Of a stretch of DNA of 64,000 nt, positions 7,624-59,348 are shown one piece after another (positions within the stretch are counted from its first letter, which is position 1; each line of letters opens with the position of its first letter). Below the pieces are notes generated by a model. That model did not search any database. It saw nothing but the letters and a program-made list of their open reading frames with translations, and was not told where the DNA came from. Source of the stretch: Escherichia coli (lineage in GTDB: Bacteria > Pseudomonadota > Gammaproteobacteria > Enterobacterales > Enterobacteriaceae); NCBI RefSeq assembly GCF_048403405.1, contig NZ_CP183129.1, one strand, 5' to 3'. The translations under genes were made by a program, and so were the position numbers.

Positions 7624-8856
7624 TTATGCGACGGGGTCTATTTCCCAGCCGGTGCGGCAATCAGTAAAGAGGCCTTGCGGGCAGCGTCCTAATGTCACCC
7701 GCGTTGCCTGCTGCCAGTTAGCGAAATCAGTAATCGCCTGACGTAACCCTTTTTGCAGCGTTGTCGTTGGTTTAATGCCTTCTTGTAACCACAGAGAGAT
7801 AACTTCAAGGATGCCTGTCTGGCGATGCATTTTGGCATCCATTCGCCCAACTAATTGCCCACGATGTAATAACGGCAGAACAAAATAGCCATACTGGCGT
7901 TTCGGCGCTGGGGTATAGCACTCCAGCCGGTAGCTAAAATCAAAAAGCTGCTCTGCGCGTTTGCGATCCCAGACAACAGGATCAAAAGGCGAAAGTACCG
8001 CGCTGTGCGTTGCAGTGAGCTTTCCGGCCAGCGCACGCTCGAGTAGCGGCAGCAAATCAGCATGCAGCCAAAGATTGCCCAATTTTTCAACATGCACAGC
8101 AATGATTTGCTGCTGTTCAGCCCTCGCTTCGCGCCAAACCGCCAGTGCCGGACGTTTCAGCCGATAGTAATCTGCCAGCCACTGTTCGCGGAATATGCCA
8201 AGGCTACGCGCACTGTTATCCAGCATGATGATTTCTGCTTCTGTTTGCGAAACGAGATCGCGCTCATCATCCCAGTCAGGCATGACACGATGGGTTAAAT
8301 CATAAACGCGCTGGAAGTTGCGCCGTTCAATCACCATCACTTTCCCGGCAGTAAATAAACCTTCCAGATGCCGTTTATGCGGCTTCCATTCCCACCAGCC
8401 GCTTGCACCTTTACGAGGATGCTCAAAATCGGCTGAACGTACCGGCCCCTTATCATGAATATGCTGAATTAACTGTGCAATTTCCGCCGCATGTTCCTGC
8501 ATCCAGGCGTCTTTGTATTTCCAGCCCATTTTTTCAGGTGCCAGCATGCGGTGGCGAATAAGACGAAAGTCGCTACGCGGCATAAAGCAGGCTTCATGCG
8601 CCCAGTATTCCATTAATTCGCCACGCGCCAGAGACTCATCCAGCCACTGGGCAGGATAATTTCCCAGACGACTGAAAAGCACCAGATATGGACTACGGGC
8701 AACAATATTAATGGTATCGATTTGCAGCAAGGACATTCGGGAGATCGTTGCCGGAATATCCTCCAACGACGCTCGACGGCGGGGTTTGTTTAACAGGCCT
8801 TGCGCGGCGAGGTGAAGATTACGCGCATCAGCAAGAGAGAGGTGCGGCAGCGACAT
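7624..8856 (-). CDS. ycaQ: YcaQ, winged-helix DNA glycosylase family protein
   Basis: 410-aa ORF MSLPHLSLADARNLHLAAQGLLNKP... Synteny between lpxK and ycaR supports the call. Confidence 0.9.
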   Translation of the reverse strand: MSLPHLSLADARNLHLAAQGLLNKPRRRASLEDIPATISRMSLLQIDTINIVARSPYLVLFSRLGNYPAQWLDESLARGELMEYWAHEACFMPRSDFRLIRHRMLAPEKMGWKYKDAWMQEHAAEIAQLIQHIHDKGPVRSADFEHPRKGASGWWEWKPHKRHLEGLFTAGKVMVIERRNFQRVYDLTHRVMPDWDDERDLVSQTEAEIIMLDNSARSLGIFREQWLADYYRLKRPALAVWREARAEQQQIIAVHVEKLGNLWLHADLLPLLERALAGKLTATHSAVLSPFDPVVWDRKRAEQLFDFSYRLECYTPAPKRQYGYFVLPLLHRGQLVGRMDAKMHRQTGILEVISLWLQEGIKPTTTLQKGLRQAITDFANWQQATRVTLGRCPQGLFTDCRTGWEIDPVA

Positions 8857-49571: not shown

Positions 49572-51344
49572 ATGACCATCACCACAGACACCACTCTTTT
49601 ACACGACCCGCGTCGTCAGGCGGCGCTGCTGTACTGGCAGGGGTTTTCCGTGCCGCAGATTGCCGCCATGTTGCAGATGAAACGCCCGACGGTGCAGAGC
49701 TGGAAACAGCGCGACGGCTGGGACAGCGTTGCCCCCATCAGCCGTGTCGAAATGAGTCTGGAAGCGCGGCTGACCCAGCTCATCATCAAACCGCAGAAAA
49801 CCGGCGGTGACTTCAAGGAAATTGACCTGCTGGGACGCCAGATTGAACGACTGGCACGGGTCAACCGCTACAGCCAGACCGGCAACGAGGCAGACCTTAA
49901 TCCGAACGTCGCTAACCGCAACAAAGGCGGGCGGCGCAAACCGAAAAAGAATTTTTTCAGTGACGAGGCCATCGAAAAGCTGGAGCAGATTTTCTTTGAG
50001 CAGTCTTTCGAATATCAGTTGCACTGGTATCGCGCCGGGCTTGAGCACCGCATCCGCGATATCCTGAAATCCCGCCAGATTGGCGCGACGTTTTATTTTT
50101 CCCGCGAGGCGCTGCTGCGCGCCCTGAAAACCGGTCATAACCAGATTTTTCTGTCGGCCAGTAAAACGCAGGCGTATGTGTTCCGCGAATACATCATCGC
50201 CTTTGCCCGTCTGGTTGACGTTGACCTGACCGGTGACCCGATTGTCCTGGGCAATAACGGCGCAAAACTGATTTTTCTCGGCACCAACTCCAACACCGCG
50301 CAGAGCCATAACGGCGACCTGTACGTCGACGAGATTTTCTGGATCCCGAATTTTCAGGTACTGCGTAAGGTGGCATCAGGTATGGCCTCACAGAGTCACC
50401 TGCGCTCGACCTATTTCTCCACCCCGTCCACGCTGGCACACGACGCCTACCCGTTCTGGTCGGGTGAACTGTTCAACCGGGGACGCGCCAGCGCCGCCGA
50501 ACGCGTGGAAATCGACGTCAGTCATAACGCCCTTGCCGGTGGGCTTCTCTGTGCGGACGGCCAGTGGCGACAGATTGTCACCATTGAGGACGCCCTGAAA
50601 GGCGGCTGCACGCTGTTCGACATTGAGCAGCTCAAACGCGAAAACAGCGCCGACGATTTTAAAAACCTGTTCATGTGTGAATTTGTTGACGACAAGGCGT
50701 CGGTGTTCCCGTTTGAGGAGCTGCAACGCTGCATGGTCGACACGCTGGAAGAATGGGAAGACTATGCGCCGTTTGCCGCAAATCCGTTCGGCTCCCGACC
50801 GGTATGGATTGGTTACGACCCGTCACACCGTGGCGACAGCGCAGGATGCGTGGTACTGGCACCGCCGGTGGTGGCCGGTGGCAAATTCAGGATCCTTGAG
50901 CGTCACCAGTGGAAAGGCATGGACTTTGCCACTCAGGCTGAATCCATCCGCAAACTCACCGAAAAATACAACGTCGAATACATCGGTATTGATGCCACCG
51001 GCCTCGGTGTCGGCGTGTTCCAGCTCGTGCGCTCGTTCTATCCCGCCGCGCGCGACATCCGCTACACGCCGGAAATGAAAACCGCAATGGTGCTCAAGGC
51101 AAAAGACGTCATCCGCCGTGGCTGTCTGGAATATGACGTCAGCGCCACCGACATCACCAGCTCGTTTATGGCTATCCGCAAGACCATGACCAGCAGCGGA
51201 CGCAGCGCCACCTATGAGGCCAGCCGCAGCGAGGAAGCCAGCCACGCCGACCTCGCCTGGGCGACCATGCACGCCCTGTTAAATGAGCCACTCACCGCCG
51301 GTATCAGCACCCCGCTGACATCCACCATTCTGGAGTTTTACTGA
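49572..51344 (+). CDS. P: Terminase large (ATPase) subunit gpP
   Basis: ORF 49542..51344 was trimmed to MTITTDTTLLHDPRRQAALLYWQGFSVPQIAAMLQMKRPTVQSW (590 aa). P2 P. Confidence 0.93.
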   Translation: MTITTDTTLLHDPRRQAALLYWQGFSVPQIAAMLQMKRPTVQSWKQRDGWDSVAPISRVEMSLEARLTQLIIKPQKTGGDFKEIDLLGRQIERLARVNRYSQTGNEADLNPNVANRNKGGRRKPKKNFFSDEAIEKLEQIFFEQSFEYQLHWYRAGLEHRIRDILKSRQIGATFYFSREALLRALKTGHNQIFLSASKTQAYVFREYIIAFARLVDVDLTGDPIVLGNNGAKLIFLGTNSNTAQSHNGDLYVDEIFWIPNFQVLRKVASGMASQSHLRSTYFSTPSTLAHDAYPFWSGELFNRGRASAAERVEIDVSHNALAGGLLCADGQWRQIVTIEDALKGGCTLFDIEQLKRENSADDFKNLFMCEFVDDKASVFPFEELQRCMVDTLEEWEDYAPFAANPFGSRPVWIGYDPSHRGDSAGCVVLAPPVVAGGKFRILERHQWKGMDFATQAESIRKLTEKYNVEYIGIDATGLGVGVFQLVRSFYPAARDIRYTPEMKTAMVLKAKDVIRRGCLEYDVSATDITSSFMAIRKTMTSSGRSATYEASRSEEASHADLAWATMHALLNEPLTAGISTPLTSTILEFY

Positions 51345-52363
51345 TGAGCAAGAAAAAAGGGAAAACACCGCAACCTGCGGCAAAAAAAATGACCGCCAGC
51401 GCCCCGAAAATGGAGGCATTCACCTTTGGCGAGCCGGTGCCGGTACTCGACCGCCGTGACATTCTGGATTACGTCGAGTGCATCAGTAACGGCAGATGGT
51501 ATGAGCCGCCGGTCAGCTTTACCGGTCTGGCGAAAAGCCTGCGTGCTGCCGTGCATCACAGCTCGCCGATTTACGTCAAACGCAATATTCTGGCCTCGAC
51601 ATTTATCCCGCATCCGTGGCTTTCCCAGCAGGATTTCAGCCGCTTTGTGCTGGATTTTCTGGTGTTCGGTAATGCGTTTCTGGAAAAGCGTTACAGCACC
51701 ACCGGTAAGGTCATCAGACTGGAAACCTCACCGGCAAAATATACCCGCCGTGGCGTGGAGGAGGATGTTTACTGGTGGGTGCCGTCCTTCAACGAGCCGA
51801 CAGCCTTCGCGCCCGGCTCCGTGTTTCACCTGCTGGAGCCGGATATCAATCAGGAGCTGTACGGCCTGCCGGAATATCTCAGCGCCCTTAACTCTGCCTG
51901 GCTGAATGAGTCGGCCACGCTGTTCCGCCGCAAGTATTACGAAAACGGCGCTCATGCCGGATACATCATGTATGTCACCGATGCCGTGCAGGATCGCAAC
52001 GATATCGAAATGCTTCGCGAAAACATGGTGAAGTCGAAAGGCCGCAACAACTTTAAAAACCTGTTTCTCTATGCCCCACAGGGGAAAGCCGACGGCATTA
52101 AAATTATCCCCCTCAGTGAAGTGGCGACGAAGGACGATTTTTTTAATATCAAAAAAGTCAGCGCCGCAGATCTCCTGGACGCACACCGCATCCCCTTTCA
52201 GTTGATGGGCGGTAAGCCGGAGAATGTCGGGTCACTAGGAGATATTGAAAAAGTGGCAAAGGTCTTTGTCCGCAATGAACTCACTCCATTACAGGAGAGA
52301 ATAAAGTCAATAAATGAATGGTTAGATATGGAAGTCATAAAATCCCTTGATTATAACTTATAA
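51344..52363 (+). CDS. Q: Portal (capsid vertex) protein gpQ
   Basis: 339-aa ORF MSKKKGKTPQPAAKKMTASAPKMEAFTFGEPVPVLDRRDILDYVECISNGRWYEPP... Its start overlaps the P stop. The last ~30 codons switch to AT-rich composition. Confidence 0.92.
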   Translation: MSKKKGKTPQPAAKKMTASAPKMEAFTFGEPVPVLDRRDILDYVECISNGRWYEPPVSFTGLAKSLRAAVHHSSPIYVKRNILASTFIPHPWLSQQDFSRFVLDFLVFGNAFLEKRYSTTGKVIRLETSPAKYTRRGVEEDVYWWVPSFNEPTAFAPGSVFHLLEPDINQELYGLPEYLSALNSAWLNESATLFRRKYYENGAHAGYIMYVTDAVQDRNDIEMLRENMVKSKGRNNFKNLFLYAPQGKADGIKIIPLSEVATKDDFFNIKKVSAADLLDAHRIPFQLMGGKPENVGSLGDIEKVAKVFVRNELTPLQERIKSINEWLDMEVIKSLDYNL

Positions 52364-52375
52364 GTAAATATATAA

Positions 52376-52402
52376 AGTTGGCGGAATGCAATCCCGCCAA
52401 CT
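52376..52402. terminator. Bidirectional stem-loop between convergent Q and the 2-TM gene
   Basis: agttggcgg (52376..52384) / ccgccaact (52394..52402), a 9-bp perfect stem with a 9-nt loop and A/T-rich flanks. Confidence 0.55.
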
Positions 52403-52405
52403 TAA

Positions 52406-53113
52406 CTATATATACTTCCTTTTTACTCTACTTAATTCTATCACTGATGAGGAGTGACAAAATGACAAATTAATAGTATCGATATAATCCAAAATTTGAC
52501 TCTCAACCTCAATAAAAATATTTTTGGGCCCATTACTAATCGATATACCGATTTCATCCAAAACAGCCATCATTTTTCTCTGATGAGTTTTATATTTATA
52601 GTCTTTATTTTCCTCTGTAATATGTGCATTGGCTTCCTCAATAACACATTTGATTCTAGATATTATTTCTAGATAATCTCTCGAAACAGATATATCACCG
52701 CCTTGCGCTTCAGGGAACATAACCCTATACCATCTAAAAAAATTAACTTTCTCTGGATAGATGCTACTTCTTTTAGTTAACTCAGCACTTGCAAATTCTC
52801 TAAACATCGTCAGATGACTAGTGTAATTACTATTATTATTATTTTTAACTCCAGCGTTATATGTCATCAAAGCAATCATAACACCAAAAACGGTAACAAA
52901 AGTTGTTATAAGCCATCCAAACGCCTGAAAATACATTACTATACCAGATGTTTTTTCCGCAAAAAATTTTAAGCACTGGCTATCGAAGCATATATCACGC
53001 TCATATAGCTTTTCATTCTGAATAGTTTCAAAAAGAGAAATTAGCGAAAAAATCAAAAAAAGAGCTGACGACACACCGACAATATATTTGAGAAGTCTAA
53101 TATTTGCATTCAT
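52406..53113 (-). CDS. Two-transmembrane protein translationally coupled to the RT (candidate effector)
   Basis: 235-aa ORF. TM1 is YIVGVSSALFLIFSLISLF and TM2 is IVMYFQAFGWLITTFVTVFGVMIALMTY, followed by a soluble C-terminal ~150 aa. The ATG overlaps the RT stop (ATGA at 53110..53113). AT-rich. Confidence 0.7.
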   Translation of the reverse strand: MNANIRLLKYIVGVSSALFLIFSLISLFETIQNEKLYERDICFDSQCLKFFAEKTSGIVMYFQAFGWLITTFVTVFGVMIALMTYNAGVKNNNNSNYTSHLTMFREFASAELTKRSSIYPEKVNFFRWYRVMFPEAQGGDISVSRDYLEIISRIKCVIEEANAHITEENKDYKYKTHQRKMMAVLDEIGISISNGPKNIFIEVESQILDYIDTINLSFCHSSSVIELSRVKRKYI

Positions 53114-54300
53114 AATGGTTTTAAAGATGCCAATCTAGATTTAAAACACTCCAGTTTTTCTTTAAATGATTCAGAGCGAGTAAGAATAATCATCTTATAT
53201 CTCGTCAAATCATATTTTCTTTTATACCAATGTTTATTTTGATTACCTTTCGAATACGACAACTCTAAACTTTTTATAGCTGCATCAATCACAGCAACAT
53301 CTCTTTTAGATGGCATCGGTTTTATTGCCTGCAACTGTTTCTTGAATGATTCATATTTTTCATGCCCAACACGGCCAAGCTTATTCACTCTCCCCATACA
53401 TCTATTGAATTCTTTTCTGTATGCAACACTTGTTTTTGTGTTATTTTTTGCCGCCAGTAATTTCAAATTATGTATAGATGCCCTGATTCTTTTGACTTCA
53501 TCGGATGGTAGTCGAGGTGAGTCATAGTCAACTCTTAAACCATGTACTTTTATAGGTTCAGATGAACAGTGAAATATTTTTGTTTTGTGCTTATTTATCG
53601 GCAAGTCATGCTCAGAAAGCATCCTCTCTATATGGCTTTGCATTTGAGAAAAATCATAATTACTTATTTTAGATGACACGGTAATATCATCTACCAAACG
53701 CGTATAAACAAGTCCTTTCCTCTGCGCACGTCTTACCACATCCCCTTCAACAGCGAATAAACACAAAGTTGCTATATAGCTTGATGTTAAGGCCCCCTGT
53801 ACGACAAAATCATCCTTAGTACATATATCCACCAAGTATTCAAGAGCCTCATCCTTAATATGCAATATCTCCTCAAACACGCTCCTAACCAGATCTCTAT
53901 GGATATTATCGAAAAAATTACTTATATCCACCTTGAGAACTGTTTTTGCTCCACAATGAGCCTTTGCACATGAAACATAGTCACGTTTGACATTAGAATT
54001 TAAAACATCATTTTTACTGGGAACTGAACCAAACAAAAATGAAGGAAAAACAACCAATTCCTTAAAAATACGTTTATTAATTCTACTCTGTAATAATCTC
54101 ATTTTAGGATGTAGGGAGTAGACAATCCGTTTGCTTCCGTCAATTTTGGGAATTTCTTTTAGAGTATATTTCTCATCTAATGATAATTCTGCAATAGCTT
54201 TAAGCTCTTCAACAGAAATCGATAAAGCCTTTGACAACTTTTCAAGTGTTGTGATAGGAGCATTGGATTTGCTGTATGGTTTAAATTTATCCATAAACAT
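53110..54300 (-). CDS. Retron-like reverse transcriptase
   Basis: RT motifs read from the ORF: KIDGSKRIVYSLHP (motif 1), LLQSRINKRI (2), VLKVDISNFFDNI (A), QGALTSSYIATLCL (B), YTRLVDDITVSS (C, YxDD-type), INKHKTKIF (D/E) and VHGLRV (a retron VTG-like position). The N-terminal LEKLSKALSISVEELKAIA segment is as in retron RTs. The start is ambiguous: ATG 54300 or 54294 is favoured, with ATG 54336 or TTG 54384 possible. Confidence 0.8.
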   Translation of the reverse strand: MFMDKFKPYSKSNAPITTLEKLSKALSISVEELKAIAELSLDEKYTLKEIPKIDGSKRIVYSLHPKMRLLQSRINKRIFKELVVFPSFLFGSVPSKNDVLNSNVKRDYVSCAKAHCGAKTVLKVDISNFFDNIHRDLVRSVFEEILHIKDEALEYLVDICTKDDFVVQGALTSSYIATLCLFAVEGDVVRRAQRKGLVYTRLVDDITVSSKISNYDFSQMQSHIERMLSEHDLPINKHKTKIFHCSSEPIKVHGLRVDYDSPRLPSDEVKRIRASIHNLKLLAAKNNTKTSVAYRKEFNRCMGRVNKLGRVGHEKYESFKKQLQAIKPMPSKRDVAVIDAAIKSLELSYSKGNQNKHWYKRKYDLTRYKMIILTRSESFKEKLECFKSRLASLKPL

Positions 54301-54552
54301 ACCATTCAAATTCAAAGTTACGTACGGTCTTCCCATACTCAAGGGTGGAACAGCAGAGATGCTTACATCAACAATTGTCAGCAACAGCCTCTGCTATCTT
54401 TCGACCGTACGTAATGTCGTCGGCTACGGCACCATCGTAGTTGACGACGGTGGGGCCTCGCTGATAGGTCCATAGTGGACGCTTTTTTGTAAAAGCAAAA
54501 ACTGACAATTTAATGTTGTTGACTGCCGCATACCAAGCGAATCGCTGGTGCG
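54301..54552 (-). ncRNA. Candidate structured non-coding leader (possible retron msr-msd) upstream of the RT
   Basis: About 250 nt lie between a predicted promoter and the RT ATG, with no credible ORF and dense inverted repeats. These are a 12-bp perfect IR 54318..54329/54403..54414, a compound hairpin 54416..54448 (GTCGTC-AA-CTACG-loop-CGTAG-CC-GACGAC), a 9-bp IR 54373..54381/54502..54510 and a 7-bp IR 54352..54358/54389..54395. I could not assign a1/a2 or the branching G uniquely. Confidence 0.35.
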
Positions 54553-54558
54553 CTAAGA

Positions 54559-54587
54559 ATAATGCAACAAAAAAATAAGAATTTCAA
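54559..54587 (-). promoter_or_regulatory. Candidate sigma-70 promoter for the RT leader
   Basis: The minus strand reads TTGAAA (54587..54582), a 17-nt spacer, then CATTAT (54564..54559). The predicted start is near 54552, within ...TCTTAGCGCACC. Confidence 0.35.
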
Positions 54588-54625
54588 CCGGGTAACTGCA
54601 AGCCAGCGACATCGTTTAGCGCGCA

Positions 54626-54644
54626 GTGCTTTCCCCGCCTCGCC
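54626..54644 (-). other. cos cohesive-end sequence (P2-type 19-mer)
   Basis: The plus strand gtgctttccccgcctcgcc is the exact reverse complement of GGCGAGGCGGGGAAAGCAC, the P2 cohesive end as I remember it. It sits in a GC-rich block (about 54590..54780) with repeats ccgg[a/c]acatgcaa at 54720..54732 and 54735..54747. Confidence 0.8.
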
Positions 54645-54805
54645 CGCCCGCTTCGTGGGGCGGTTTTAATGCAGGTGCAATACCGCTTTTGAGCCACGCC
54701 CGTCCTGGCGGACGCACGGCCGGAACATGCAACTCCGGCACATGCAAAACCATGCACATATTGCACGCAGAAAGATAAATGCCAAAATACCTAAATCAAC
54801 TTCCA

Positions 54806-56644
54806 TTAATCAGCCAGATAAGGTTCAACTTTATCTTCCCATACACTAAATAAAGGCAAACAAGTTAAATAAAAGATAAAGACACAGGCAAAAACTGAAG
54901 TTGGTTGATAACAATGATTTACAGTATACCTGCCATGAGCCATCGTGTGTCTAATTGCAGCACCACCTTTCATATTGAACAATAAATCCATAGTCAATAC
55001 ATGATCACTATCAAAAACACCTTCCATTTCACTCCTATAATTTGCAAGCATTTGAGATAGGCTAGTAGCCTCCTCAAAAAGCGACACATCTATTTTCGTT
55101 GTTTCTTTTCTTCTTAATTCTAAAATCCATCTAATTGAATTCTCCAATTGCGGCAATAACAAATAACAGGCAGACACATAATCTCCCTGCCAAAGCTTAT
55201 AAAACCCCAAAGAAAATATTTCTGCATACCCAGGTGGAACAAATGCACTTTGTTGTGAGATTGGGTCAAATGTATTTTCATTTAATGAATACCTAGCCAA
55301 CACACTTTGCCTAACGACTTCAAACTCACCACAAACATAGACCTGATGCTCAATGTTACTAGTTCTTAAATAATTTGCACAAGCATCATTTAAACTTATA
55401 TCCCCCGCAGGATCCAAAGGTGAACGACTTGCTACAACGCGCCCTCTATCATCATAAACAACCGTTTCACTCATATTAAGAAAAAAATGTTTTTTAGCAT
55501 CGGAACGAGCTCTTTCCATAATTTCACTGGCACTTACAATCTTAAATCTAGCAATTAAAGTTTTAATTACCCTTGAGAAATCCAATTGATTATAAACATG
55601 CTCTTTCTGAGCGATAACATCACTAAGATCCATTGGTATTGCAAAGAAGTGCATTTCATCATTGATTTGATCTCGAATAGAATTCAATTCCTCTCTAATC
55701 TTTTTAATTTCTTCATTCATTCCACCAATTGCTCTAAATTCGCCAAGAGCAACTCTTAACCAATGAGCCTTCAATATTGAAGATGAAGACTGTTCAAATT
55801 GAGCCAATGTTATTTCTGACGCTTTAATTCTGCACCGTCTTCCTTGCTCTTCCATATCGTTTTTAACATATAATTCAGACGCAAAATAAAACAATTTTTT
55901 CACTGCATCAAAATAAGACGCTCCACAATGCTCATCAGCTATCTTTTCTGCATTCTCAGCCAATTGCAAGGGACACAATAAATTATTCTTATAAAGAATT
56001 TCAGAAACTCTTAATACACCGGTGAATATACCAGAGTCTATTAATACATGATATAACCTTAATGTCGAATCAACTATCCCCCCTTGTAGTTGTTTTTTCC
56101 TGCCAATAAGCATGCGCGATATTGCGATACCTCTATCCAAGCAGTCAACAACATCAAAAATATGGATATCACCTGACTCTTGTTTTTCTATTAAAGTATC
56201 GCAAGCATCATTAACCATTAGAGAATATGACTCTATTGCTTTATTGGCAGAGTCTATATCCTTACGGTTATTTATCCATAAAACATCACACACCCTAGAT
56301 ATAATATAAGGATTATCGGAGTTTTCTTTAATACAAGTTAATATTGTTGAAAAACTCTCCTTATAATCTGAAGGCCTATAGCCCCTCTCAGGATAGAGAA
56401 TGATTTTTGGCTCAAAACCGATAATATCACCAGACCTAGAAAATTTAAAATTAAACAACGCACGTAATAAATAGCAAAGCCGCCAAGAACTTACATCGTT
56501 TTTTAGCTTGTAAGATGACAACAACTGAACAAAATAAGACTCCATATCAAAATGAGAATAACTTCTTGGCGATGATAATATACTGGCGTATTCACTTTTT
56601 TTAAAATCATCAACTGAAATAGAAAAAACATCAAACTCGCTCAT
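54806..56644 (-). CDS. 612-aa cargo protein of unknown function with C-terminal R-x4-H (HEPN-like) motif; candidate anti-phage/abortive-infection effector
   Basis: Uninterrupted AT-rich ORF with a strong SD (AAGGTGAGGA immediately upstream of ATG 56644). It is largely helical by composition. I could not find a P-loop, so it is not Old-like. The C-terminus reads YLLLPQLENSIRWILELRR...GGAAIRHTMAHGRY. It occupies the tin/old position between A and cos. Confidence 0.55.
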   Translation of the reverse strand: MSEFDVFSISVDDFKKSEYASILSSPRSYSHFDMESYFVQLLSSYKLKNDVSSWRLCYLLRALFNFKFSRSGDIIGFEPKIILYPERGYRPSDYKESFSTILTCIKENSDNPYIISRVCDVLWINNRKDIDSANKAIESYSLMVNDACDTLIEKQESGDIHIFDVVDCLDRGIAISRMLIGRKKQLQGGIVDSTLRLYHVLIDSGIFTGVLRVSEILYKNNLLCPLQLAENAEKIADEHCGASYFDAVKKLFYFASELYVKNDMEEQGRRCRIKASEITLAQFEQSSSSILKAHWLRVALGEFRAIGGMNEEIKKIREELNSIRDQINDEMHFFAIPMDLSDVIAQKEHVYNQLDFSRVIKTLIARFKIVSASEIMERARSDAKKHFFLNMSETVVYDDRGRVVASRSPLDPAGDISLNDACANYLRTSNIEHQVYVCGEFEVVRQSVLARYSLNENTFDPISQQSAFVPPGYAEIFSLGFYKLWQGDYVSACYLLLPQLENSIRWILELRRKETTKIDVSLFEEATSLSQMLANYRSEMEGVFDSDHVLTMDLLFNMKGGAAIRHTMAHGRYTVNHCYQPTSVFACVFIFYLTCLPLFSVWEDKVEPYLAD

Positions 56645-56798
56645 TCCTCACCTTTAAAGCACTTAACAAACAATCATGGTAAACAATACCAAACTGCAAG
56701 CAACGATTAAATACAGAAAACTCTTTCTGTCGAGATTTTTCAATAACACTAAATATATACAGTACGAAATTATCTAATATTGCGTGAATTTTTGCCAT
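56631..56798 (-). CDS. 55-aa hypothetical protein coupled to A and to the 612-aa gene
   Basis: ORF 56631..56834 was trimmed to ATG 56798 (MAKIHAILDNFVLYIFSVIEKSRQKEF...). This ATG overlaps the A stop (TAATG). Its 3' end overlaps the 612-aa ORF start by 14 nt. It is AT-rich. Coding status is unproven. Confidence 0.4.
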   Translation of the reverse strand: MAKIHAILDNFVLYIFSVIEKSRQKEFSVFNRCLQFGIVYHDCLLSALKVRNERV

Positions 56799-59083
56799 TA
56801 TGTCCACTCCATTACTGTTGAGAATCCCGGCCACTCATCAATGACCGGATACGTGAATTTTTTCCCGCCATAATTTATGGTCGCTCCCCGAGCCAGCGCC
56901 TCAAGCTCCCATCGCTGTGGCCTGATACCGTTCTGAGCAAGGTCAACGCGGATACGGGTAATTTGCATTCGTTCCGACCGGGTCAGTCTGGCCGATGGCG
57001 CTATTTCATGCGGTTTTAACGGGCTTCCGTTTCTTTGCTGACGGTTTGGTCTTCTCAGACCGTGTTTTAATGCACCTCTGAGCGCCCTCACGACCTCCTG
57101 GTCATTCCATTCGATAACACCGTCATCTACCAGATTAAGCACTGCTACGGCGTGTTCAGAAGGCGTGGGAGCCGGTGACGAAGTATCACCACCGGTGAGC
57201 TTTCCACAGTTATTGACAGGACTCCGAGGCGCGGCGATGCCGCTTTTTAAAGTCAACGGCTCAACGACCGGAACTTTCGGCACAATGCGCCAGTCCGTCG
57301 TTCTGGTGATATGAATATGACGCGTGCCGAGATGCGGCGCGTAAATGCCGACCACTCTCTCGACTTCTTCCTCGTACTCGTTAACGTCATCCGACGGGCT
57401 ACGGGCGACCCTGACAGTCTGACAATCGCGCGGGACATTTGCCCCGCCCTGCGCGCTGATATACAACGCAAAATCACCACTGTCTGCGGCGGCGCGTGCA
57501 GCCTCGACGCGTTCGTCAAACTCATCAGCAATGCTGACGCCGCGAGGCAATTTGCGTAGTTCACGGTAAGCCCCCATTGTCGGCAGGCCAACCGTTTTAA
57601 ATTGCGGGATACGCCACGTTGACGCCCATGCGGTAACAGCCGCTGCAGTGTCTTTCAGCGGCCTGCCGGTATCGTTATCGAGCTGACCATCCAGTGCATA
57701 GCCGTCGATATTTTTTGAGATGTATTTCGCGATATATCCCGCAGCACCGCCCCGGTTAAGGTGTTTCGCCTGAAAACGGTTTCGCGCGGCTCCTCTTTCG
57801 TCGCCATCCTCTTTGAGCGCATAGCGACGCATGATTTCGATAATCTGGTTACGCTGGCGTGGATTACAAAAAAGCATCATATGCCAGTGCGGCGTTCCGT
57901 CGTGGTGTGGCTCGACGACTCGCAAACCGTAGACCTGTAAATCATTATCCTTGAATGCCGTGCGCATCAGGCTCCAGATACGGCAGAGATAACGCTGCGC
58001 ATCCTTCGGATTAAATGCCTCATCATTCCAGCCGTGATTAAGCTGCACGGTTTTACTTTCTCCTTTTCCGACCTGACGTGTCGGGTGATACTTTGACGGC
58101 GCGGTCAGCGTGATAAACATCCCCACATCACCCTCTGCGGCGGCGTAACGCTCAATACCGGCGATGGTGTTCATCAGCTCCATCCGGCGAATTTCAGGAT
58201 TAGAAATACTGCCCATCACCTTACTGATAAGGTCGATGCGCTCGCCGGTTTCCCTGTTTTCGAGGTCACACGATTTAAGAAATTCCAGATTTGCCTGGCG
58301 GCGTGCACGCACATCACGAATGGCGTGTTTACTGGCATAAGGAGAACGATCTTTATTGACCTCCCCGACAGCAATCAGTAACGCCTCATGCCAGCGCATA
58401 CGCTGGCCTTTAAGCTGATGAGTCCACCACTCATCGTTAAACAGGCGGGCAATGGCAGAATATGCCTGCCTCGTGGTCATCTGTCCTTTACGGTATTTTT
58501 TCCAGTAGAGCGGGGAAATATTGAAAGCACGTGCAGCGCCAGCAACATGACTATACAGGTGAGCCTGCGCCTCATCCGTAAACAGCGATTCTTTTTCGCC
58601 ATGCGCATCCACCCAGGCATCGCTGAGTTCCTCATACATCATGAAAAGCTGCGATGAGATACGGGCGGCAAACTTTTTCAGCTCCTTGTCATTCATTCCA
58701 GGCAGGCGCGCATAGTGGTCACGCTCTGCCAGAAACAGCAACGACGCGTCGGTGTTCATTTCATGGCGCTGATTCACGCGCTCAATGCGCGGCCATAAAC
58801 GACGCTGAAAAGTGGATGTGAGGAAATAAAACCCGTGTACCGGGCTTTTATTGCGCCGGATGTAGTCATAGCGTGAAGTAAACAGCGAGCGCAAAAAGTA
58901 AGGCAGGCGGTTAATCGTGGATAAAACCCCTTGCACCTGACGCATCTCGTCACGTGTAAGGGGTCTTTCGCGCCCGACGGCCTCGCGTGGCGCGTTCCAT
59001 GCATAAGCACCGGTAAACGTCTTACCGGTGCCTGCGGCAAATGCTGACGGAGGGACAAAACGCCCGGAGGCTTTAACGGCCAT
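56798..59083 (-). CDS. A: Replication initiation endonuclease gpA (rolling-circle, HUH-type)
   Basis: ORF 56798..59125 was trimmed to MAVKASGRFVPPSAFAAGTGKTFTGAYAWNAPREAVGRERPL (761 aa). It contains VEPHHDGTPHWHMMLF (HUH-like) and YIAKYISKNIDGY (catalytic Tyr pair). It matches P2 A closely as I recall it. Confidence 0.93.
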   Translation of the reverse strand: MAVKASGRFVPPSAFAAGTGKTFTGAYAWNAPREAVGRERPLTRDEMRQVQGVLSTINRLPYFLRSLFTSRYDYIRRNKSPVHGFYFLTSTFQRRLWPRIERVNQRHEMNTDASLLFLAERDHYARLPGMNDKELKKFAARISSQLFMMYEELSDAWVDAHGEKESLFTDEAQAHLYSHVAGAARAFNISPLYWKKYRKGQMTTRQAYSAIARLFNDEWWTHQLKGQRMRWHEALLIAVGEVNKDRSPYASKHAIRDVRARRQANLEFLKSCDLENRETGERIDLISKVMGSISNPEIRRMELMNTIAGIERYAAAEGDVGMFITLTAPSKYHPTRQVGKGESKTVQLNHGWNDEAFNPKDAQRYLCRIWSLMRTAFKDNDLQVYGLRVVEPHHDGTPHWHMMLFCNPRQRNQIIEIMRRYALKEDGDERGAARNRFQAKHLNRGGAAGYIAKYISKNIDGYALDGQLDNDTGRPLKDTAAAVTAWASTWRIPQFKTVGLPTMGAYRELRKLPRGVSIADEFDERVEAARAAADSGDFALYISAQGGANVPRDCQTVRVARSPSDDVNEYEEEVERVVGIYAPHLGTRHIHITRTTDWRIVPKVPVVEPLTLKSGIAAPRSPVNNCGKLTGGDTSSPAPTPSEHAVAVLNLVDDGVIEWNDQEVVRALRGALKHGLRRPNRQQRNGSPLKPHEIAPSARLTRSERMQITRIRVDLAQNGIRPQRWELEALARGATINYGGKKFTYPVIDEWPGFSTVMEWT

Positions 59084-59348
59084 ATGAGCCAAAAGCCTCT
59101 GAACAACGCTTGCTGAGTTGCTCAACCTGCGCGTTTAAATCAGCAAAAGACTTTGCGCTTCCGGTCAGAATATCGTGATGCATCAGGCCGGAAACGAGCT
59201 GGCTTAATTTCGGGTAATAACCAACCACCGCCAGCCATTCCTGACCGGCGTTTTTACCGCTTTCCGCTCTCTTTTTCTCGTGGAGAATAAACTGAAAGCT
59301 GTCACTGGTAACGACATAACGTTCGCCAATTTCAATACGAATGCTCAT
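59073..59348 (-). CDS. P2 orf83-like early protein
   Basis: 91-aa ORF MSIRIEIGERYVVTSDSFQFILHEKKRAESGKNAGQEWLAVVGYYPKLSQ... Position immediately upstream of A. Confidence 0.8.
   Translation of the reverse strand: MSIRIEIGERYVVTSDSFQFILHEKKRAESGKNAGQEWLAVVGYYPKLSQLVSGLMHHDILTGSAKSFADLNAQVEQLSKRCSEAFGSYGR

Follow-up and report, generated by a model that had tools for sequence, protein, structure and literature searches.

In bacteriophage P2, the interval between replication gene A and the cohesive-end site cos carries orf91, tin, and old, with tin and old lying antisense to A under their own promoter. The concept of a hotspot of variable cargo between gpA and gpQ comes from Rousset et al. 2022 (PMC9122126). 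In this study, we analyzed a P2-like prophage in a 64,000-nucleotide (nt) stretch of the Escherichia coli contig NZ_CP183129.1 (assembly GCF_048403405.1; hereafter, the window), in which the A-to-cos interval holds an AT-rich cassette with a 612-amino-acid (aa) open reading frame (ORF), ORF612. ORF612 is a real gene, horizontally acquired as cargo of the A-to-cos hotspot of this prophage. It is a stand-alone gene combining DUF7380, a TPR-like region, and a HEPN domain, and we consider it most likely, with a probability of roughly 60%, that its product is a single-polypeptide abortive-infection (phage-exclusion) RNase.

The closest described systems are earlier records of ORF612 itself. Across 2,029 nt that take in the leader, the cassette is 99.9% identical at the DNA level to GenBank AM157366 (99.7% for the protein), which was deposited as 'Bacteriophage P2-EC46 proviral ORF612' from E. 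coli ECOR46 with only ORF612 and its ribosome-binding site annotated. Table S5B of Rousset et al. 2022 (PMC9122126) lists system #55, 'DUF4209', as one gene with 76 occurrences and the flag '1 TM', and the first ~400 residues printed there are the ORF612 sequence. Both records describe the same gene as that in the window with no difference of substance, and neither source gives a function. The initial annotation of this DNA, made from its letters alone, had called the locus a candidate for an undescribed defense system and had placed neither protein in a named family. The locus is not undescribed, since the gene is P2-EC46 ORF612, system 55, and the PADLOC candidate PDC-S39, and its protein also matches Pfam DUF7380.

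The sole homolog with a published test is pFR103, 'Putative HEPN', which is system #13 'DUF4209' from E. coli S88 with 193 loci (Rousset 2022, PMC9122126). It resembles ORF612 in family, architecture, single-gene organization, and the slot directly after gene A, but differs in sequence (28% identity over the first 399 residues) and is commoner (193 vs. 76 loci). PDC-S39, a computational candidate like the other PADLOC PDC entries, matches ORF612 over its full length with a hidden Markov model, and both are single-gene with no obligatory partner. Later papers carry PDC-S39 only as an entry in defense inventories, and a 2026 survey of the P2 and P4 hotspots directed its experiments at P4 unknown loci only. 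No experimental validation of the DUF7380-DUF4209 family was found in the literature, the four validated HEPN systems of DefensePredictor not having been compared, and no literature was found on DUF7380, on P2-EC46, or on ERMARD as a HEPN protein. ORF612 is already known as a catalogued candidate in a widespread defense-candidate family, and its defense activity is unproven. The discovery is modest, as the gene, the hotspot, the HEPN prediction, and the candidate status were all on record.

Position of ORF612 in the P2 Hotspot

The features that define the locus are as follows.

54806..56644, minus strand: ORF612, 612 aa; single-gene cargo with DUF7380, a TPR-like helical region, and a C-terminal HEPN domain (DUF4209-type); PADLOC PDC-S39
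54698..56782, minus strand: inserted AT-rich cassette of ~2.1 kb in place of P2 orf91-tin-old, placed by the limits of P2 homology and the GC profile
56645..56782, minus strand: AT-rich leader of ORF612, including the Shine-Dalgarno sequence AAGGTGAGGA; presumed promoter and 5' untranslated region
54751..54767, minus strand: terminator-like hairpin with a T-run, ~40 nt past the ORF612 stop and before cos
54626..54644, minus strand: cos cohesive-end sequence GGCGAGGCGGGGAAAGCAC, an exact 19-nt P2 match
56798..59125, minus strand: P2 replication gene A, the upstream flank of the hotspot (Pfam Phage_GPA, E = 6.9e-124)
51344..52363: portal gene Q, the far flank of the hotspot

ORF612 fills the A-to-cos interval, because the gene A upstream is P2 gpA and an exact P2 cos lies downstream; the window contains one exact copy of this site, against 0.02 expected by chance. 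The GC content is 0.31–0.35 over 54800..56800, compared with 0.51–0.58 in gene A and ~0.54 in the flanks. In an alignment with P2, homology stops at 56783 and returns ~55 nt before cos, and the cassette would thus have entered by recombination the upstream breakpoint falling within codon 6 of orf91 and the downstream one at this point before cos. The Shine-Dalgarno sequence (56654..56645) stands directly 5' of the ORF612 start codon (56644..56642). As variable cargo between gpA and gpQ that adjoins cos in a P2-like prophage, the cassette is a member of the hotspot. The initial annotation had placed it at the tin/old position, which the Phage_GPA match and the exact cos bear out, and the 612-aa and 55-aa ORFs, their overlaps, the strong Shine-Dalgarno sequence, and the AT-richness that it described are all present.

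Domain Architecture and Conservation of ORF612

The encoded protein is divided into three parts, the last of which contains two conserved motifs read from the translation.

56093..56623, minus strand: DUF7380 domain (Pfam PF24098), residues 8–184; proposed sensor/regulatory module
55475..56092, minus strand: central all-helical TPR-like solenoid, residues ~185–390
54815..55225, minus strand: C-terminal HEPN domain of the DUF4209/C6orf70 type, residues ~474–610; proposed RNase effector
55130..55153, minus strand: P498-Q-L-E501-N-S-I-R505, conserved acidic HEPN helix
54935..54952, minus strand: R565-H-T-M-A-H570, the HEPN R-x4-H motif, followed by G571

DUF7380 matches residues 8–184 with 86.9 bits (cut-off 27), both PADLOC PDC-S39 models match residues 8–599 (E = 2e-68), and PHROGs family 5183, which carries no assigned function, matches the full length. 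Conservation was evaluated in an alignment of 49 relatives with 17–52% identity to ORF612. R87, D93, R171, E501, R565, H570, and G571 are invariant, and P498 and R505 are conserved in at least 90% of the relatives. DUF7380 was matched by all 49 relatives and DUF4209 by 37; in the 51%-identical protein P0007, the DUF4209 match at residues 500–590 corresponds to the ORF612 segment with PQLENSIR and R-x4-H. DUF4209 is the C6orf70 family of the HEPN superfamily, predicted to be catalytically active and found in operons related to restriction-modification (R-M) (Anantharaman 2013, PMC3710099). The assignment of the C-terminus to the HEPN RNases, first made from the R-x4-H motif, is thereby strengthened, with R565, H570, and E501 unchanged throughout the relatives and most of these matching a HEPN family. 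The predicted structure appears to agree, being modeled as an all-alpha up-down helical bundle, as in solved HEPN domains.

The ratio of nonsynonymous to synonymous substitution rates (dN/dS) of ORF612 is 0.23 against homologs with 88% and 77% protein identity, and ORF612 is under purifying selection.

The DUF7380 domain shows a set of conserved residues between positions 87 and 171 (R87, D93, R117, D120, W123, and R171), of which R117, D120, and W123 are near-invariant; these charged residues may point to a second active site or to a site that binds a ligand or a protein.

Other identities were considered for the protein. Old, or another P-loop nuclease, was rejected because no ATPase, P-loop, or Toprim match was found in Pfam or PADLOC, in keeping with the earlier view that ORF612 is no Old homolog, and a C-terminal transmembrane (TM) anchor was judged unlikely. 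Sequence searches of PDB, run both from the protein alone and from a profile, gave chance matches only, and a Foldseek comparison of the domain model with PDB gave no significant match.

Family Distribution and Genomic Neighbors

An exhaustive HMMER search recovered 2,111 cluster representatives with an E-value cut-off of 1e-3, of which 1,103 also passed 1e-10. Among the best 150 of the 2,111 clusters, almost every protein is 600–640 aa long and aligns from end to end. A profile search of a word-indexed protein database gave nothing beyond the same 12 proteins. In other P2-like prophages, from E. coli, Citrobacter, Enterobacter, and a metagenome, the slot behind gene A is filled by homologs with 88%, 77%, 52%, and 35% identity, and the P2-like phage genome vB_EcoM-569R9 has a 32.5% homolog. 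The cassette is rare in complete E. coli genomes (20/5,426).

A scan of one genome per species, using the 12-sequence alignment as the query, resulted in the identification of 44 related loci in Proteobacteria, Firmicutes, Actinobacteria, Cyanobacteria, Chloroflexi, Verrucomicrobia, Nitrospirae, and Methanosarcina, and PDC-S39 matches among the relatives reach 8.9e-247. Among 142 neighbor proteins from 39 loci, type I R-M subunits are the commonest, followed by integrases and mobilization genes. Two homologs with 22–24% identity lie within complete type I R-M operons of metagenome-assembled genomes: in Leptolinea (L031, 2835..10702), the order is hsdM, hsdS, homolog, hsdR with gaps of at most 30 nt, and in Nitrospirae (L023, 3075..11883), hsdM, hsdS, and the homolog are followed by hsdR ~1 kb farther.

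Further candidate genes were observed beside some homologs. A PDC-S31 (DUF2971-like) candidate lies downstream of the homolog in two P2-like hotspots (L004, 7849..8760; L009, 10714..11532), at a distance of 7 nt in L004, and candidate genes appear to be stacked within one hotspot in these two loci. In two metagenome contigs, a 111-aa SLATT_5 gene that matches PADLOC RTasSLATT follows the 22%-identical protein P0011 (L011, 10028..10363; L012, 8558..8893).

Proposed Function and Alternative Explanations

In the mechanism that we propose for ORF612 as an abortive-infection RNase, the N-terminal two thirds (DUF7380 and the TPR-like part) would serve as both sensor and autoinhibitor, keeping the HEPN RNase off. 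The protein would be present in the lysogen, and on infection by a competing phage, a phage-derived signal would release the HEPN domain. The active domain, probably dimeric, would then cut cellular or phage RNA and halt translation, resulting in aborted infection.

Several points weigh against this reading. The tested homolog pFR103, carried with its native promoter, showed no detected activity against eight coliphages (Rousset 2022, PMC9122126); it is placed in Table S2B under 'additional tested systems', a group with no reported activity against the panel of eight phages, and the validated systems are given in Table S2A. P2 hotspots also hold non-defense cargo, such as partition systems and toxins (Rousset 2022, PMC9122126). 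Regarding the nuclease domain, the sequence of ORF612 itself gives no Pfam DUF4209 (PF13910) match even at E ≤ 1, despite the DUF4209 label given to it by Rousset et al., and the structural scores for HEPN are modest, which is a reason for caution. Regarding expression, ORF612 is co-oriented with the early operon, which is repressed in lysogens, and a promoter scan gave 14 promoter-like sites against 8.9 ± 3.1 in shuffled sequences; sites of this kind are present on the minus strand of the leader, but in no excess over the shuffled expectation. Therefore, the expression of ORF612 in the lysogen is unproven.

The alternative to which we give the most weight is nevertheless unlikely in our view. 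ORF612 might benefit the phage itself, being expressed with the early lytic operon as an RNA-remodeling RNase, an anti-P4-satellite function, or a counter-defense function, instead of acting as a lysogenic-conversion defense. It is co-oriented with gene A and directly downstream of it in all P2-like loci examined, in contrast to the antisense tin and old of P2 with their own promoter; in the stretch from A to ORF612, the scan detected neither a terminator-like site nor a significant promoter signal, terminator-like sites being no more frequent than in shuffled sequence; and the tested homolog gave no defense from its native upstream region. However, distant relatives are found outside phages, in type I R-M operons and other mobile elements, and therefore a host-defense role fits better than one in the P2 lytic cycle. 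PADLOC also lists the family as a defense candidate, and the 138-nt AT-rich leader, which aligns in part with the Citrobacter locus and is non-coding there, is compatible with a promoter of its own.

It is improbable, in our estimate, that the HEPN domain is non-catalytic and that ORF612 works by binding, by scaffolding, or as an effector anchored in the membrane by a hydrophobic C-terminal helix. Some HEPN domains are non-enzymatic, residues 581–603 (PTSVFACVFIFYLTCLPLFSVWE) are hydrophobic with a mean Kyte-Doolittle value of 1.5, and these are accompanied by the '1 TM' flag in Table S5B of Rousset 2022 and by the TM segment of eukaryotic C6orf70 (Anantharaman 2013, PMC3710099).

The 55-aa ORF at the Insertion Junction

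A small ORF precedes ORF612 at the upstream edge of the cassette.

56631..56798, minus strand: 55-aa ATG ORF, chimeric, with the orf91 start fused to the cassette leader
56783..56798, minus strand: retained 5' stub of P2 orf91, ATGGCAAAAATTCACG (MAKIH); upstream recombination breakpoint, where P2 identity ends

The initial annotation had likened the two ORFs to a toxin-antitoxin or sensor-effector pair, in which the 55-aa protein would be an antitoxin, sensor, or translational coupler of the 612-aa effector. Their arrangement invites such a reading: the gene A stop is joined to the small-ORF ATG as TAATG (56800..56796), and the 3' end of the small ORF shares 14 nt with the start of ORF612 (TGA at 56633..56631, ATG at 56644..56642). 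If read from an upstream GTG, the small ORF has 67 aa and reaches 56834. In addition, it has a PHROGs family, phrog_37811.

The origin of the small ORF, however, is revealed by the comparison with P2. Identity covers the ATG and the first five codons and ends after ATGGCAAAAATTCACG, the N-termini being MMAKIHE in P2 Orf91 and MAKIHA in the small ORF. In a nucleotide search of phage genomes, matches to ordinary P2-like phages were confined to the initial 52 nt of the query; this stretch comprises the 3' end of gene A and the same stub, and its annotation there is gene A and then orf91, which encodes an ASCH/DUF3850 protein. The remaining 50 codons are read-through into the AT-rich leader of the cassette. 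Because its start and first five codons are those of orf91, the small ORF owes its translational coupling with gene A to orf91.

The small ORF is also poorly maintained among relatives. In the 88% E. coli variant, a 42-nt deletion takes 14 codons and the stop is lost, so that the frame enters ORF612 by 35 nt; the frame is still open because the deletion is in frame. The Citrobacter locus (77%), to which the leader DNA aligns in part, has no plus-strand ORF of at least 20 aa in its 158-nt spacer; the Enterobacter-type homolog (52%) starts 60 nt past a gene A remnant, with no small ORF; and at the 35% locus, the 294-nt gap after gene A contains no called gene. Over 41 alignable codons of the small ORF, eight nucleotide differences cause six amino-acid changes (dN/dS ~0.73), a near-neutral value compared with 0.23 for ORF612 and 0.09 for gene A. 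Its peptide matched three protein clusters among 5.8 billion sequences, all from this same cassette. The small ORF is unannotated in the two RefSeq (PGAP) records inspected, and neither it nor ORF612 has an NCBIfam match. An all-against-all comparison of neighbor proteins across the 44 related loci revealed no recurrent partner family, and the system counts as one gene in both Rousset 2022 and PADLOC.

The insertion junction gave rise to the 55-aa ORF as a leftover of orf91 that lies outside the system. The proposed two-gene layout does not withstand these data, and the co-occurrence of the two ORFs, on which it depended, fails at the 77%, 52%, and 35% loci; we consider a two-gene module highly improbable. 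Just as implausible is a decaying or functionless hotspot passenger, which would suit the rarity of the cassette and the inactivity of the tested homolog but not the intact 612-codon frame, the low dN/dS against two diverged homologs, the full-length architecture in nearly all of the best 150 matches, and the invariant motifs.

The cos-to-Q Half of the Hotspot

The other half of the hotspot, between cos and gene Q, is occupied by a separate element.

52406..54384, minus strand: retron of the Ec48 family (type IV)
53110..54384, minus strand: retron reverse transcriptase (PADLOC RT_IV, E = 1.1e-176)
52406..53113, minus strand: retron 2TM effector (NCBIfam retron_Ec48_2TM, 227 bits, cut-off 65)
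54385..54625, minus strand: presumed msr/msd region upstream of the retron reverse transcriptase

The presumed msr/msd region matched no Rfam family at E ≤ 1 in a scan of 52000..57200, and its fold is no more stable than that of shuffled sequence (z = −0.89). The exact same arrangement of ORF612, the 2TM gene, and the reverse transcriptase gene is given in Table S5A of Rousset 2022 (PMC9122126). In E. coli ECC-1470 (CP010344; L013), an identical ORF612 cassette is accompanied by other genes between cos and Q, namely two small hypothetical genes of 89 and 156 aa with no PADLOC match (7843..8575) and no retron. Since ECC-1470 pairs the identical ORF612 with different cos-to-Q cargo, the A-to-cos and cos-to-Q halves are exchanged independently.

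Comparison with Known Systems and Implications

The anticodon nuclease PrrC is encoded in the EcoprrI type Ic R-M locus in the order hsdM-hsdS-prrC-hsdR. PrrC and ORF612 each join a regulatory N-terminal part to a HEPN-type nuclease with R-x4-H at the C-terminus, and the slot of prrC between hsdS and hsdR is that of the distant ORF612 relatives in L031 and L023. This shared position suggests that these relatives may be latent RNases that back up restriction. In PrrC, however, the N-terminal part is an ABC-ATPase-like NTPase, whereas in ORF612, no P-loop or ATPase family was detected (Pfam, PADLOC, NCBIfam); its N-terminal part consists of DUF7380 and the TPR-like region, and no sequence relation to PrrC is detectable outside the HEPN superfamily. 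Furthermore, ORF612 of the window is alone in a prophage with no adjoining R-M system, unlike prrC.

Extending this comparison to the whole family, we tentatively put forward a broader proposal, which we hold as a possibility with less than even odds. PDC-S39 (DUF7380-DUF4209) could be a large family of stand-alone HEPN abortive-infection RNases, ancestrally PrrC-like back-ups of type I R-M operons, activated once restriction has been disabled. The mobile copies, such as ORF612 of P2-like prophages, would have become autonomous and would sense a phage trigger via DUF7380 and the TPR-like part, and their nuclease domain would share ancestry with that of human ERMARD/C6orf70. If ORF612 protects against phages, the status of validated defense system would extend to a family that numbers more than 2,000 protein clusters, spans prophage hotspots and type I R-M operons, and shares a nuclease-domain family that includes human ERMARD (Pfam, Anantharaman 2013). 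The family would in that case also provide a second case of an RNase inside R-M operons, unrelated to PrrC outside the HEPN domain. For annotation, the locus should be recorded as a single-gene DUF7380/DUF4209 (PDC-S39) candidate, and it illustrates that recombination within orf91 can create the appearance of a closely coupled partner.

Single-protein HEPN defense is also known from ApeA, AbiD/F, AbiJ, RnlA/LsoA, PD-T7-4, and DS-11 and DS-38 of DefensePredictor. None of the PADLOC models of these systems matches ORF612, and the N-terminal DUF7380 domain is specific to the ORF612 family, unlike in the other single-protein HEPN systems. By sequence comparison, human ERMARD/C6orf70 would share its DUF4209-type HEPN domain with 37 of the 49 ORF612 relatives, but it is eukaryotic and differs from ORF612 in overall architecture.

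Old and Tin of P2 are the counterparts of ORF612 in position, as they lie between A and cos and are likewise presumed to be non-essential exclusion cargo. Old, however, is an ATPase with a Toprim nuclease, and both Old and Tin are unrelated to the ORF612 protein and are encoded in the opposite orientation. P2 keeps orf91, whereas the prophage in the window retains only its first five codons.

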